NCBI RefSeq assembly: GCF_013315695.1
Contig: NZ_CP054353.1
Reading direction: 5' to 3' (one strand)
Origin: Escherichia coli
GTDB taxonomy: Bacteria > Pseudomonadota > Gammaproteobacteria > Enterobacterales > Enterobacteriaceae
Length of the DNA stretch: 64,000 nt
Shown here: positions 42,501 to 48,500 of the stretch, one piece after another
Position numbering within the stretch: the stretch's first letter is position 1
Layout: each line of letters begins with the position of its first letter
Made by a program: the position numbers

Positions 42501-45500
42501 CGTTCAGCGGTGGTGAGCCCGCCATCACCGCCTCCGGTATTCCGCTCATGCTGGCGTACCCAGACACGCAGAGTCTCCGGTGTACAGCCAATCTTTGGGG
42601 CAATGGAACAAATTGCCGCCCATTGTGAGTCATATTCGTCCTGACTTTCCAGAACCATACGAACTGCCCGTTGACGGACTTCGGGGGAAAAACGTGTATT
42701 TTTAGTCATCCTGTTTACCTCTTTCTCAGGGAATTTAGTCTCCAGGATTCCCGGGGCGGTTCACAGTAATCATGCCGGGTCTGGCTGGCTAACACCCCAT
42801 TATAAGGGGTACGAATAAAGTAACGGGGCTTCACGCAGGGATGGACAGATTGCTCTGATATACAGCCGACGACGTCCCGCTGCAACATCATCACGCAGAT
42901 GCTTCATTTTCAGATTTGGGACCTCCTTTTGATTTCTCGTTTAACTTTTGCTGTTACCAGACTTTAATCTATTTTAACAATTCAAGAATTTTTTATAAAA
43001 TGCTCAAAGATGAAAGCGTTACTGAACCAACCAGCTTGGCTGATGTTTTCTATAGATAAAAAGATCATCAGCAAAAACTGATAGCCTGAATCACCTTTAC
43101 TACCAATCATGTATGAAGAAAACACGCACAAACAATTGACAATGATTATCATTTGCATTAAAAGGATTATGTAGTATTTTTATTTCATGAGGAACTATAC
43201 CCGCCAGCAATCTGAGTAGCGAAAGCTGTTCATCCCCAATATTTTTGCTGGCGGGTTCTTTTTTCTACTGCCCTTCTCCTCAGAGGGAGCATTCCATTCT
43301 TTTTCTCATTAATGGCGAGGGGGCGGGACAAAAAGCCGGTTCTTTATCCCTAAATAACAGCATGATTTCAGTCCATGCAAAATCTGATTTACCAGCTCAC
43401 ATAATAACCTGATGATACATGGGTTTTCCCTGATCATGGTGGGAAGGCTCAGAACGCCATATTCAGTTTCCCGTAGTGGAACATCACGCCCAGCTTAAAG
43501 CGCTCCCGATTTCGGTATCCCCTGGCTTTTATCCTCAGTAGCCTGATCTTACTGTTAAGCGCCTCCGCGTTTCCGTTTGAGACACGGTGTCGCATGGCAT
43601 TCAGGATCCCGTAAAGCCTTTTTCCTATCGTTTTCGCGGCGTTTTTCATCATAGGAACGTCACTGTTGGCCGCCAGAGCCAGCCATCTCTCCCAGTCATT
43701 ACGTCTTTCCTCACTCCATGGCCTGTTCCAGATATCCTTTGCCAGCTCTTTCAGCGCCCAGCACTGGCTTGTCAGCTTCATCTGTGCACGCAGCCATATC
43801 AGCTTTTCCTGCCTGGATTTGGTCATCCATTTATCGCTGTACTGCCACAGGAAGCGGGTCCCCTTTGCCTGACGCCAACTTTCAACAGGGAGGTGCGGAT
43901 GTTCATTCTGACGGGTTTTATCAACCACTTCGCCAAGTTGCTTTGCTACATGGAAGCGGTCGAAGGCGATTTTCTCAACCGCACAGGGTAAGTGGATACG
44001 CGCTGCTCTTATATAGCCTGCATTCATGTCCATTGAGAGCGTTTTGATAGCCAGCAACTGCCCGTCAGTAAGCGTGCGAAGATAGCCGGCGAGGCTCTCT
44101 GTGCCACGATCGTCCGTTAAGGCCAGCGCACGACCATCGCGATCGGAGATCACCGTTATATAACGATGTCCTTTTTTAAAGGCGACCTCATCCACATTGT
44201 CAGCACCAGTGATATAAGACGGATAGCAAAGCGCACGCGCTGTTTGTCACCGTGAAAAACGACGGTGCGACGGCAAAAGCCAATAACAACGAGAGCGTCG
44301 TGCGCATTCCTCTGCACTGACAGTTGATTCTTAGAACGTAGAGGCCTGGATTGCTGCCAGGCTTTTATTGCACTACCAGCTACGGCTAAAAGATAAGCGT
44401 CCCGGGAAGTACATAGCGCTTACAAAATATCCGACATGAAGCATACTGGAAACGAGGCGTATTGTTATTGTTGTTCATATTGGCTTCCGTGGCGGAAATA
44501 TCAGGGGGTAGCTACATATCCCCCATGCAGCCAAGGCAACGATGTTAACTCTCGTCACCTGTTCCTTTCGACAGAGCCAACCTCGCAGAGGGCCAGATCT
44601 TACAACTTCACCTCAGTGATACAAAACACAAAAATACAAAACAATTTGATACAAATCATCCCTCTTATTTTAAATAAATCCATCTTGCAAGCCTACCAAT
44701 CAGAAGGTAGCATGTGTAGTATCGCAAACATAAAGAGAAATTGCTCATGAATTATGTTATCTGCACTACCATTGTCGCCCTTGGTCTCATTCTGACAGGC
44801 TACGCAACTGCTGCAGATGAAATTAATCGTCAGGACGTTGTTGGTTTGATGCCGTCAGACTATATTTCTGTTGGTAATCTATATACACCAGAAGAGGTGG
44901 CAACTGCGCTTAAAGACAAAGCGGAGCAGGCAGGAGGTTCTCATTTCCGAATCACTTCATTGGGAGGAAAAAATAAACTTGATGGAACTGCCATTATCTA
45001 TCGCTAAAATATGTATAATAGTCCCTTTAATACATAACAGGTAAAGCCGTGTCTACTTATGAGAATATACTTCGCATAACGGATACTCTGATCCAGCAAC
45101 GCGGATTTTTGGGGTTCAGTTACGCAGATCTGGAAAAAGAAATTGGTATCAGAAAAGCCAGTATTCATCACCATTTCCCGAGGAAAACTGATCTTGGTAT
45201 AGCCTACTGCCAATACAAAACAGAAGTATTTGATAGACTTAATATAACTCTCCATAATGTTTCTTCAGGTGTACAACGTCTCAGGACATATCTTGATGCA
45301 TTTGCTGGTTGTGCTGAAAGAGGGGAAATGTGCGGTATTTATGCCATGCTATCCGACAGCCATCAGTTTTCTCCTGAATTACAGGAGGCTGTAAGTCAAC
45401 TGGCACATCAGGAGATACAGATGATTAAAGATATTATCACCTCCGGGCAGAATAGTGGAGAGTTCAAAACAGTTCTTCTTCCGGATGAGCTCGCCGTTAT

Positions 45501-48500
45501 AGTCTGTTCTACACTAAAGGGGGCACTGATGTTAAATCGACTTCCACCACATGATACCTATTCAGGAACCGTTAACGCTTTAATTAAAATGCTTGATACC
45601 CGTACTTAATCCTTTTTAGTGCATATAATTTTCCACCCGGAGAATGAAATGAAAAAATTTATTAATGTTTACATTAAATCAGATTATGACATAGTTATTC
45701 TTCGCCTGTCTGTTATTATAATATTTATGCTCTTCGGGACCTATAAATGGTTTGATTTTGAAGTGATGGCCCTCAAGCCCCTGATTTCTCCCACGTGGCT
45801 GAATATCCTGTACATTATGTTTGGTGTTCATGGGGGGAGCTATTTCCTCGGCATAGTAGAAACTATCACTTTTCTAGCACTGAGTATCGGCTTCTTCAGG
45901 CCTGCTGCTGGCATACTGGGAGATATTATCGTTATTGTTACAGGTTTAGTCACACTAAGTCTGTTACCACAACTGGGAAAAGTTGACAGTTTTGTCATCA
46001 AAGATGTGCTGCTGTTAGGTGCTGGTAGTGTCCTGCTGAAATATGATTTGAAAAATTATTTAAATATCAAAAACTGATTTTTCACTTCGGTGATGAACGT
46101 TTGCGTATTTTCATGGAAAGAGATTACCTAATCCCCCTCGTTCTCCTTCATGTTAATACGCAACGTTATGGAAAACAAAAATACCCTGAGTAAAAAGGTC
46201 CGTAGGCAGGCGAGTACTTTTATTTTCCGCTAGTTTTACTTTCCCATCGAAGGCCCCATACATCACTACGCCCACGAAACAACCGACGAAATAACGCAAC
46301 TTTCTCATCCGTGGATAATACGGAAACGCACTGCACAGGACTCTGCGGTTTACGTCGCCATTCAATCCCATAAGCTTCAAGTGATGTCTTCCCTCAGTGC
46401 TGCTAATTCATCACTGTCAGATTTATGAACCATATTCGTTACCTGTATCCGAACCACTGAAGCACCACAGCAGAAATTCGGGTCCCCTACACTGATTACA
46501 GCGCCCCCTCTGCTGCCTATTAACTCAAGCACCTCCCAACAACTTACGGAAACTTAATTCTAATACAGCTGTAATTCAGTTGTGTCGTGGTCGGCCGCGG
46601 TTACTTTTTTCGGGAAGTCTGCTACGCATCAGAATAATACCGTGTTCTTTCTGATCCTGTTTAGCCAAGTAGCTAAGGGCGTAACGTAAACCGTTAGACT
46701 GGCCCCCTGAATCTCCAGACAACCAATATCACTTAAATAAGTGATAGTCTTAATACTAGTTTTTAGACTAGTCATTGGAGAACAGATGATTGATGTCTTA
46801 GGGCCGGAGAAACGCAGACGGCGTACTACACAGGAAAAGATCGCTATCGTTCAGCAGAGCTTTGAACCGGGAATGACGGTCTCCCTTGTTGCCCGGCAAC
46901 ATGGTGTGGCAGCCAGCCAGTTATTTCTCTGGCGTAAGCAATACCAGGAGGGAAGTCTTACTGCTGTGGCTGCCGGAGAACAGGTCGTTCCTGCCTCTGA
47001 ACTTGCTGCCGCCATGAAGCAGATTAAAGAACTCCAGCGTCTGCTCGGCAAAAAAACGATGGAAAATGAACTCCTTAAAGAAGCCGTTGAATATGGGCGA
47101 GCAAAAAAGTGGATAGCGCACGCGCCCTTATTGCCCGGGGATGGGGAGTAAGCTTCGTCAGCCGTTGTCTCCGGGTGTCGCGTGCGCAGTTGCACGTCAT
47201 TCTCAGACGAGCCGATGACTGGAAGGACGGCCGCCGCAGCCGTCACACGGATGATACGGATGTGCTTCGCCGTATACACCATGTTATCGGAGAGCTACCC
47301 ACATATGGTTATCGTCGGGTATGGGCGCTGCTTCGCAGACAGGCCGAACTTGATGGTATGCCTGCGATCAATGCCAAACGTGTTTACCGGACCATGCGCC
47401 AGAATGCGCTGTTGCTTGAGCGAAAACCCGCTGTACCGCCATCGAAACGGGCACATACCGGCAGAGTGGCTGTGAAAGAAAGTAATCAGCGATGGTGCTC
47501 TGACGGGTTTGAGTTCCGCTGTGATAACGGAGAAAAACTGCGGGTCACGTTCGCGCTGGACTGCTGTGACCGTGAGGCACTGCACTGGGCGGTCACAACG
47601 GGTGGCTTCGACAGTGAAACAGTACAGGACGTCATGCTGGGAGCAGTGGAACGCCGCTTTGGCAGCGAGCTTCCGGCGTCTCCAGTGGAGTGGCTGACGG
47701 ATAATGGTTCATGCTACCGGGCGAATGAAACACGTCAGTTCGCCAGGATGTTGGGACTTGAACCGAAGAACACGGCAGTGCGGAGTCCGGAGAGTAACGG
47801 AATAGCAGAGAGCTTCGTGAAAACGATAAAGCGTGACTACATAAGTATCATGCCCAAACCAGACGGGTTAACGGCAGCAAAGAACCTTGCAGAGGCGTTC
47901 GAGCATTATAACGAATGGCATCCGCATAGTGCGCTGGGTTATCGCTCGCCACGGGAATATCTGCGGCAGTGGGCCAGTGATGGGTTAAGTGATAACAGGT
48001 GTCTGGAAATATAGGGGCAAATCCATTGTCAGCGCCAACAATGTGGGCTGACATGATAAAGCTGTCTAGGAAATCGTTCGCCTCCTCAGCGGACAATCCA
48101 AATGGTGATTGTCTCTGTTAAACGTTTATTTTGAAGGTCGACTGAATAAGGTGATGACGCTGTAGAATTTTTCACGTGCCACAGAATTTTGAACGCTTTC
48201 TCTTACAATATTTCAATGTTTCTATCAGTATTCGCCGGAAGAAGTCATCGACCAAATCATCCCAGTCGTCTCGCACCACTGACCATTCATGGTTGACATG
48301 TGGTGGAAATCCGCTTCTACAGTAACCATTTTTTATTCGCAAAACCGAACACGCCATACGGATAGCTGTTAACTGGCATGCCGAGGCAGTCGTTATTTAT
48401 ATTTAGTTTTGTCAATAATCTTTATTTTTTGTAAAAGGTAAATATAAATTATTCTCATTATTGTTTGTATTTGTGTATTGTCTTGCCGGTTAACATGATC

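Follow-up and report, generated by a model that had tools for sequence, protein, structure and literature searches.

A cluster of three co-oriented genes in a 64,000-nucleotide stretch of Escherichia coli DNA (contig NZ_CP054353.1; here, the window) raises the question of whether it encodes a new stress module paralogous to the rclB/rclC reactive-chlorine-resistance genes, as a preliminary description had proposed, or a system that is already known. Several lines of evidence point to the latter. The locus has the same gene order and orientation as c3599-c3600-c3601 of strain CFT073, with mismatches at 5 of 1601 aligned bases, and two of the encoded proteins, RcrA (WP_001110186.1) and RcrR (WP_000109148.1), are identical to their CFT073 counterparts. 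The CFT073 genes were characterised as rcrA-rcrR-rcrB by the Dahl laboratory (Sultana et al. 2022 mBio, PMC9600549), with further preprints from Crompton et al. 2023 (10.1101/2023.06.01.543251) and Sultana et al. 2026 (10.64898/2026.03.12.711259). That those papers studied another locus is excluded by gene order, by the TetR and DUF417 descriptions and by residue numbering. We are therefore highly confident that the cluster is the rcrARB operon of extraintestinal/uropathogenic E. coli, working by the published mechanism, and nothing speaks against this identification. Since the cluster is a named system, published since 2022, it counts neither as a new system nor as a new paralogous module. 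Its genes are as follows.

44747..45007, + strand: rcrA (c3599), 86 aa from ATG; predicted secreted protein of the DUF1471 / YdgH-BhsA-McbA family
45049..45609, + strand: rcrR (c3600), 186 aa, GTG start; TetR-family repressor sensing reactive chlorine species
45649..46077, + strand: rcrB (c3601), 142 aa from ATG; DUF417 inner-membrane protein, HOCl-resistance effector

All three open reading frames are intact and lie on the + strand between 44747 and 46077. The spacers measure 41 bp between rcrA and rcrR and 39 bp between rcrR and the ATG of rcrB (9 bp from an upstream GTG), in keeping with the co-oriented arrangement and the 10-40 bp spacing first described. At 44741, where the start was originally placed, stands a TTG, two codons before the rcrA ATG, and this codon is CTG in CFT073. 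RefSeq names the identical proteins 'DUF1471 domain-containing', 'TetR/AcrR family' and 'DUF417 family', and the family assignments first proposed hold up in HMM searches (PF07338, TetR_N and PF04224). All published functional residues are present, namely Cys54/88/95/153 of RcrR and Lys43/Trp44/Trp60/Lys128 of RcrB. Sequence identity, family membership, functional residues, genomic context and distribution come from the present analysis, and regulation, phenotypes and the quenching mechanism from the literature; we infer the promoter, the operator and the RcrB start codon.

The operon sits in the tRNA-Phe (pheV) pathogenicity island, whose content (pheV, integrase, pap, iha, sat and iutA) agrees with that of CFT073. 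The island is rearranged around the module here, with iha on the opposite side and a different IS content, and the genes, their order, the island and the promoter region are alike in both. IS fragments and pseudogenes ring the module. They include the remnant of an ISL3 element on its upstream side, a fragment of a TOTE primase on its downstream side and a pap operon in decay. The G+C content of the module is 39.8% versus 47.3% for the window. Such surroundings would suit a decayed, non-functional island remnant or a generic TetR-controlled module of envelope or efflux type unrelated to oxidants, a reading to which we assign next to no probability. The module is carried by 757 of 5426 complete E. 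coli genomes, and 736 genome records have all three reading frames intact at 99% identity or more. A single non-synonymous difference separates the locus from the experimentally active CFT073 allele, the promoter region and Shine-Dalgarno sites are conserved, and the published experiments document a function specific to reactive chlorine species. The extent of the conserved unit is apparent from alignment to plasmids:

44633..46069, + strand: conserved mobile module, homologous to plasmid copies in Klebsiella, Serratia and Raoultella (blastn against plasmids)

With window positions 44600-46100 as the query, the alignments run from query position 34-39 to 1470 at 76-77% identity, and the flanks are unrelated on both sides between the E. 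coli and plasmid copies. The copies in Klebsiella, Serratia and Raoultella all retain the functional residues.

Identification as rcrARB brings with it a body of experimental work on regulation. In CFT073, RcrR is the repressor of the operon, and HOCl inactivates RcrR by causing disulfides to form; binding of RcrR to DNA in EMSA is lost upon oxidation and regained with DTT, and deletion of rcrR derepresses rcrB 24-fold and raises rcrA 105-fold. The protein encoded here matches TetR_N (2e-7, residues 7-49) and TetR_C_13 (4.3e-8, residues 74-168) in Pfam, and its cysteines fall exactly at positions 54, 88, 95 and 153, in agreement with the published C54S/C88S/C95S/C153S variants. In the published mechanism, an RcrR dimer sits upstream of rcrA in unstressed cells and shuts off rcrA, rcrR and rcrB, presumably at a CCTACC...GGTAG palindrome that lies between the -35 and -10 elements. 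The RcrR cysteines are oxidised to reversible intermolecular disulfides by HOCl, HOBr and chloramines and not by H2O2 or HOSCN, and release of the oxidised repressor from DNA derepresses the operon. RcrB, a four-helix DUF417 inner-membrane protein, is both necessary and sufficient for the resulting resistance, and according to the 2026 preprint it quenches HOCl at the periplasmic face through conserved lysines and tryptophans in a glutathione-dependent manner. The reactive-chlorine stress module under another class of regulator that had been anticipated for this locus thus agrees with experiments on the near-identical CFT073 genes.

Comparison of the copies suggests where repressor and polymerase might bind, and also reveals a repeat between the first two genes.

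44685..44713, + strand: candidate rcrA promoter (-35 TTGCAA at 44685-44690, 17-bp spacer, -10 TAGCAT at 44708-44713)
44692..44710, + strand: candidate RcrR operator, CCTACC-AATCAGAA-GGTAG, within the promoter spacer
45010..45036, + strand: conserved inverted repeat TATGTAT-N13-ATACATA in the rcrA-rcrR spacer

A scan for consensus promoters returned nothing upstream of rcrA, where the -35/-10 pair scores 4+4 of 12 and falls under the threshold; the predicted pair is seen only by footprinting, that is, by conservation among copies. The elements TTGC and TAG.AT are kept with 17-bp spacing in five copies that are ~76% identical to each other. Palindromes with the half-sites of the candidate operator occur at the corresponding site of Klebsiella (CTACCTATC-TATT-GATAGGTAG), Providencia (ACTACCTACC-TTTT-GGTAGGTAGT) and Proteus (CCTACC-TTCT-GGTAGG, directly 3′ of TTGACA), and the UPEC version is degenerate in the inner right half-site. 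The candidate is the sole match in the window and by itself is not statistically unusual there, with 0.20 matches expected and at least one in 17 of 100 shuffles. It falls inside the fragment of ~430-440 bp 5′ of rcrA that RcrR bound in the published EMSA. We infer from these observations that the CCTACC...GGTAG(G) palindrome is a candidate RcrR operator. Other repeats were considered and set aside. The repeat at 45010-45036 is not supported as an RNA hairpin or attenuator (-5.8 kcal/mol versus -3.7 +/- 2.1 kcal/mol for shuffles), and one of its arms carries a substitution in Klebsiella without compensation. Direct repeats ATACAAA(A/T)CA with 15-bp spacing (44619, 44634 and 44649) were rejected as an operator because they lie at or outside the module edge and the copies in Klebsiella, Serratia and Raoultella lack them. 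An inverted repeat over the rcrA start (44716-44769, 72% complementary) is weak and not conserved.

The effector is RcrB. Deletion of rcrB in CFT073 confers sensitivity to HOCl and neutrophils, and RcrB alone suffices for resistance to both; HOCl induction and HOCl sensitivity of the deletion are reported for CFT073 and clinical isolates. A membrane location, depletion of extracellular HOCl and glutathione dependence have likewise been reported, together with loss of function in K43A, W44S and K128A variants. An AlphaFold model gives the protein four transmembrane helices (10.64898/2026.03.12.711259), consistent with the several hydrophobic segments found here, and the same preprint describes quenching of HOCl at the periplasmic face by conserved Lys and Trp, dependent on glutathione. 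Stoichiometric quenching by a membrane protein of low abundance would call for a recycling step, and the mechanism is preprint-based. The match of RcrB to DUF417 (PF04224) is split in two (3.4e-11 and 3.7e-9; model positions 7-57 and 83-175), and the loop between the two parts is shorter than that of the model. Residues K43, W44, M50, W60, K121, F125 and K128 in a 152-aa frame agree with the positions in the 2026 preprint, and the periplasm-facing Lys43, Trp44, Trp60 and Lys128 (same numbering) are invariant in four other genera. The single amino-acid change from CFT073 lies at residue 137 (147 as published), ten from the C-terminus, where CFT073 has His and the present protein Tyr; this difference is probably harmless, since every other genus examined carries Tyr. 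Published numbering starts from the GTG at 45619, giving 152 aa, and the conserved start is the ATG at 45649, giving 142 aa. A Shine-Dalgarno sequence (GGAGAA, 45639-45644) and this ATG are kept in other genera, where TGA closes the upstream frame. The true N-terminus is thus likely to be the ATG at 45649, with published residue numbers shifted by ten.

RcrA is not known to contribute to this system. RcrA matches Pfam PF07338 (YdgH_BhsA-like; E 1e-12, residues 36-86), and by hydropathy and inspection by eye its residues 1-23 are hydrophobic and end ATA|AD, an N-terminus typical of a Sec signal peptide that predicts secretion. The DUF1471 protein had been described as paired with the DUF417 protein, but deletion of rcrA has no HOCl phenotype, and the loci of Proteus, Providencia and Citrobacter gave no RcrA match with tblastn; on the latter result, an obligatory DUF1471-DUF417 pair was dropped from consideration. 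In Proteus and Providencia the TetR-DUF417 pair alone is conserved. These data are evidence for rcrA as an accessory, dispensable partner rather than part of the core. The unit kept across genera may be the TetR and DUF417 genes with a CCTACC-N4-GGTAGG operator, to which RcrA would be an added accessory.

Published work presents rcrARB as the main factor by which UPEC resists HOCl from neutrophils and as a proposed drug target. To this the present analysis adds a candidate RcrR operator and promoter, the likely offset of ten in RcrB numbering, evidence that rcrA is accessory, and an extended version of the operon on Klebsiella hypervirulence plasmids. On Klebsiella pneumoniae pLVPK and pK2044 and on other enterobacterial plasmids, the gene order and spacers of rcrA-rcrR-rcrB are those of UPEC rcrARB, with ~76% DNA and 65-85% protein identity to it; no functional Cys, Lys or Trp differs, and the promoter palindrome is kept. 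The Klebsiella cluster has three further genes that the UPEC island lacks, encoding an AhpD-like CxxC protein, a DM13-domain protein and a DUF1471 protein of 306 aa; the six genes are plasmid-borne, between iutA and rmpA2 in pLVPK. Roughly 590 Klebsiella plasmids in PLSDB carry the six-gene cluster, and the literature searched contained no functional study of it. We raise tentatively, as somewhat less probable than its opposite, the idea that UPEC rcrARB is a truncated derivative of a six-gene reactive-chlorine defence cluster. If so, the AhpD-like protein, as a CxxC thiol oxidoreductase, could be a dedicated redox partner, with UPEC RcrB using glutathione instead; if the cluster is active on the Klebsiella plasmids, hypervirulent Klebsiella would owe to it a neutrophil resistance whose determinant has gone unrecognised.

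Comparison with the K-12 rclABC operon shows what the proposed likeness to rclB and rclC amounts to. Its composition had been described accurately: RclB is a DUF1471 protein, RclC a DUF417 protein and RclR an AraC-type regulator. As in rcrARB, the genes for a periplasmic DUF1471 protein and an inner-membrane DUF417 protein lie side by side and are induced by HOCl, and K-12 rclB and rclC mutants have matching phenotypes that suggest joint action. A true rclBC paralogue would do the job of K-12 Rcl, defending against HOSCN and HOCl by a jointly acting DUF1471-DUF417 pair placed under TetR control. The RcrB-RclC alignment spans the whole length (BLASTP, E 2e-9), but at 25% identity with 45 gap positions; two loop segments of RclC are missing from RcrB, and its score on the RclC equivalog NF040476 is 22.5 bits (cut-off 275), so that RcrB does not qualify as RclC. 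RcrA and RclB share 27% identity over 49 aa only, and the best NCBIfam matches of RcrA are BhsA and YhcN, with no match to an RclB model in that search. RcrA is not nearest to RclB, and no homologue of rclA or rclR lies beside rcrARB or elsewhere in the island. Function diverges as well: RcrB and RclC cannot replace each other, RclC failing to complement an rcrB deletion, and rcrARB is neither induced by HOSCN nor protective against it. The sufficiency of RcrB alone and its retention in three genera without any DUF1471 gene also count against joint action. The paralogue reading is therefore very unlikely and largely refuted already. Judged by these alignments, the resemblance to RclB and RclC stands as distant homology at 25-27% identity and does not extend to orthology.

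The rcrARB operon takes its place beside two other reactive-chlorine systems of E. coli, from each of which it differs. Rcl uses an AraC-type activator (RclR) and a flavoenzyme (RclA), whereas rcrARB is under a TetR repressor; the Rcl gene order is A-B-C with no regulator between the two small genes, whereas rcrR separates rcrA from rcrB; and Rcl matters for HOSCN, whereas Rcr is specific for HOCl and chloramines. NemR of the NemR-NemA-GloA system, which senses HOCl and electrophiles, is, like RcrR, a TetR-family repressor inactivated by reactive-chlorine oxidation of cysteines. RcrR was rejected as a NemR orthologue, as the HTH region alone aligns (36% over 50 aa). NemR responds by a thiol-sulfenamide switch at cysteines different from those of RcrR, and its regulon consists of cytoplasmic detoxifying enzymes.

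The co-oriented trio of the preliminary description is confirmed: three intact open reading frames lie on the + strand at 44741-46077, with intergenic spacers of 41 and 39 bp.

Genes of the rcr module
44747-45007, +: rcrA, ATG to stop, 86 aa, intact ORF
45049-45609, +: rcrR, GTG start, 186 aa, intact ORF
45649-46077, +: rcrB, ATG start, 142 aa (152 aa if GTG 45619 is used), intact ORF

Pfam profile searches, the check which that description had proposed, upheld its DUF1471, TetR and DUF417 assignments: RcrA matches PF07338 (DUF1471 / YdgH-BhsA-McbA; E 1e-12), RcrR matches TetR_N (2e-7) and TetR_C_13 (4.3e-8), and RcrB matches DUF417 in two pieces (3.4e-11 and 3.7e-9). 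The N-terminus of RcrA is hydrophobic and ends ATA|AD, and RcrB contains several hydrophobic segments.

The literature on DUF417 proteins and RclC led to the UPEC operon c3599-c3600-c3601, renamed rcrA-rcrR-rcrB by the Dahl laboratory (PMC9600549). The pheV island of the CFT073 chromosome holds the same DUF1471/TetR/DUF417 trio with identical RefSeq accessions for RcrA and RcrR, and direct alignment with the window gives 5 differences in 1601 bases. Three are synonymous, and one lies 5′ of the rcrA ATG, where TTG 44741 is CTG in CFT073, which argues for ATG rather than TTG as the rcrA start. The fifth, at 46057, makes RcrB residue 137 (published 147) Tyr here and His in CFT073; since the Klebsiella, Serratia, Raoultella and E. 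coli-plasmid copies have Tyr as well, the CFT073 His allele is the derived one. The RcrR cysteines at 54, 88, 95 and 153 are exactly the positions mutated in the published work, and residues 43, 44, 50, 60, 121, 125 and 128 of the 152-aa RcrB frame (K, W, M, W, K, F and K) agree with the 2026 preprint (10.64898/2026.03.12.711259). Given this near-identity and the matching functional residues, the locus is the published rcrARB operon, a system already known and experimentally characterised, and the residual novelty is confined to relatives outside UPEC, a candidate operator and the RcrB start codon.

The functional account is that published for the CFT073 locus, which is nearly identical. All three genes rank among the most HOCl-induced in CFT073, and deletion of rcrR raises rcrA 105-fold and rcrB 24-fold (PMC9600549). 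Purified RcrR binds a 430-440 bp fragment 5′ of rcrA, and binding is lost with N-chlorotaurine, regained with DTT and unaffected by H2O2 (Dahl-laboratory papers: PMC9600549, 10.1101/2023.06.01.543251, 10.64898/2026.03.12.711259); RcrR forms intermolecular disulfides for which C54 and C95 are critical (PMC9600549). Regulation of rcrARB by RcrR can be regarded as well established. CFT073 without rcrB is as HOCl-sensitive as K-12 and survives less well in neutrophils, and deletion of rcrA has no effect (PMC9600549). RcrB is sufficient alone, and both response and protection extend to HOCl, HOBr and chloramines but not to H2O2 or HOSCN (Dahl-laboratory papers). Chemical quenching as the mechanism of RcrB, put forward in the 2026 preprint (10.64898/2026.03.12.711259), is plausible.

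Almost the same sequence as the window occurs, in reverse complement, in E. coli MSB1_4I (NZ_LR898874.1). After core genes (rdgB to speC and yqgA) the window crosses tRNA-Phe (16632-16707) and enters a pathogenicity island, whose contents include an integrase, a decayed pap operon, rcrARB, iha, sat and iutA. The rcr module has a G+C content of 39.8% versus 47.3% for the window, and lies between an ISL3 remnant and a TOTE-system primase gene fragment. The latter, directly 3′ of rcrB at 46223-46433 (-), is frameshifted and annotated 'TOTE conflict system archaeo-eukaryotic primase domain'; it is a defence-system gene remnant that marks the right-hand breakpoint of the module. Of 5426 complete E. 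coli genomes, 757 contain at least 80% of 44600-46100, with 736 records at least 99% identical; for the operon, a frequency of 46% among UPEC has been reported, the EHEC, EPEC and ETEC strains all lacking it (PMC9600549).

The pap (P fimbriae) operon of the island, 31273-40000 (-), seems decayed: the longest papC ORF is 744 aa versus about 836 (papC is annotated as frameshifted in the near-identical MSB1_4I), papF is cut by IS1 (about 32346-33043) and papG lies in two ORFs. An eptA-like phosphoethanolamine transferase gene just inside the island (19829-23793) is broken by the IS66-family element ISEc22 (about 20892-23227).

Rfam matches above gathering score in the island
27330-27452, -: isrC sRNA (97 bits)
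42926-43048, -: STnc490 (65.5 bits)
41083-41261, +: AS-pc02 antisense RNA (56.5 bits)
42312-42428, -: ALIL frameshift pseudoknot of an IS3 element (116 bits)

What is new here, and modestly so, concerns the relatives outside UPEC. The whole module occurs at ~76% identity on 699 PLSDB plasmids, 588 of them from Klebsiella and including the hypervirulence plasmids pLVPK (NC_005249.1) and pK2044 (NC_006625.1), with further copies of this type in Serratia, in Raoultella and on E. coli plasmids. Their proteins are 65-71% (RcrA), 74-76% (RcrR) and 79-85% (RcrB) identical to those of UPEC, with no change at any functional Cys, Lys or Trp residue. Three extra co-oriented genes without UPEC counterpart follow the plasmid modules, except in Raoultella, where an IS element comes after rcrB.

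Extra genes of the extended plasmid cluster
Gene 1: 91-aa AhpD-core protein with a CxxC motif (66.9 bits)
Gene 2: DM13-domain protein
Gene 3: 306-aa DUF1471 protein

In the pLVPK locus the extended cluster lies at 5114-8324, with iutA on one side and rmpA2 on the other. K. pneumoniae, S. marcescens and S. enterica have been mentioned as having RcrR homologues (PMC9600549); no account of the module on plasmids or of its extended form, functional studies included, was found in the searchable literature.

Chromosomal relatives are more distant. In Proteus, RcrR is 64% and RcrB 74% identical, and the two are in tandem; in Providencia (RcrR 49%, RcrB 68%) they are divergent; and in Citrobacter RcrB (79%) adjoins a GerE-type regulator without RcrR or a DUF1471 gene; tblastn detected no RcrA homologue in these loci. 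The Proteus locus adjoins hlyC / RTX haemolysin genes. Since RcrA is missing from the chromosomal relatives, the conserved core would be TetR plus DUF417, and the DUF1471 gene appears to be an accessory of plasmid- and island-borne modules, in agreement with the lack of an rcrA deletion phenotype.

The comparison across genera also bears on the RcrB start. Published RcrB begins at GTG 45619 (152 aa, 17.1 kDa; 10.64898/2026.03.12.711259), whereas RefSeq gives 142 aa. A Shine-Dalgarno sequence, GGAGAA (45639-45644), precedes ATG 45649, and both are kept in all genera examined; in the Klebsiella-type copies the frame 5′ of the ATG is shut by TGA and has no ATG, GTG or TTG codon. Judged from sequence, residue numbering in the papers probably runs too high by 10, so that K43, W44, W60 and K128 probably correspond to K33, W34, W50 and K118 in the actual protein.

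Footprinting across copies identified a candidate rcrA promoter on the + strand (-35 44685-44690, -10 44708-44713), whose TTGC/TAG.AT pair, 17 bp apart, is kept in the ~76% copies. A palindrome occupies the -35/-10 spacer region of every lineage compared.

Palindromes in the candidate promoter spacer region
UPEC, 44692-44710: CCTACC-AATCAGAA-GGTAG, inner right half-site degenerate
Klebsiella, pLVPK locus 5055-5078: CTACCTATC-TATT-GATAGGTAG, perfect
Proteus, locus L011 3205-3220: CCTACC-TTCT-GGTAGG, directly after a consensus TTGACA
Providencia, locus L013 3890-3905: ACTACCTACC-TTTT-GGTAGGTAGT

In degenerate form, the pattern occurs once in each rcr locus and in none of nine unrelated loci; by a naive estimate, any one 400-bp upstream region would contain it with a probability of ~9e-4. 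Within the window by itself, the single match (0.20 expected) is not significant. Its conserved position across lineages suggests CCTACC...GGTAGG as a candidate RcrR operator; none of the three Dahl-laboratory papers maps one. Just 5′ of the candidate promoter, 44619-44658 contains three ATACAAA(A/T)CA direct repeats at 15 bp spacing, present in the UPEC island copy alone and missing from the plasmid copies. The rcrA-rcrR spacer, conserved across genera as strongly as coding sequence, contains a perfect 7-bp inverted repeat, TATGTAT-N13-ATACATA (45010-45036); the stability of the predicted hairpin is not significant.

The preliminary description had likened the module to rclB/rclC of K-12, and this analogy stands as distant homology of both components but fails as orthology on score, neighbours and function. 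No NCBIfam equivalog was found for RcrA, RcrR or RcrB, RcrB scoring 22.5 bits against the RclC model (cut-off 275), and neither rclA nor rclR lies in the island neighbourhood of rcrARB. The likeness of RcrR to NemR is limited to the HTH region. A Gray-laboratory paper assigns RclB to DUF1471 and RclC to DUF417 and already terms RcrB an RclC homolog; RclB is 27% identical to RcrA over 49 residues (E 1e-5), and RclC aligns end to end with RcrB at 25% identity (E 2e-9), RcrB having two loop deletions.
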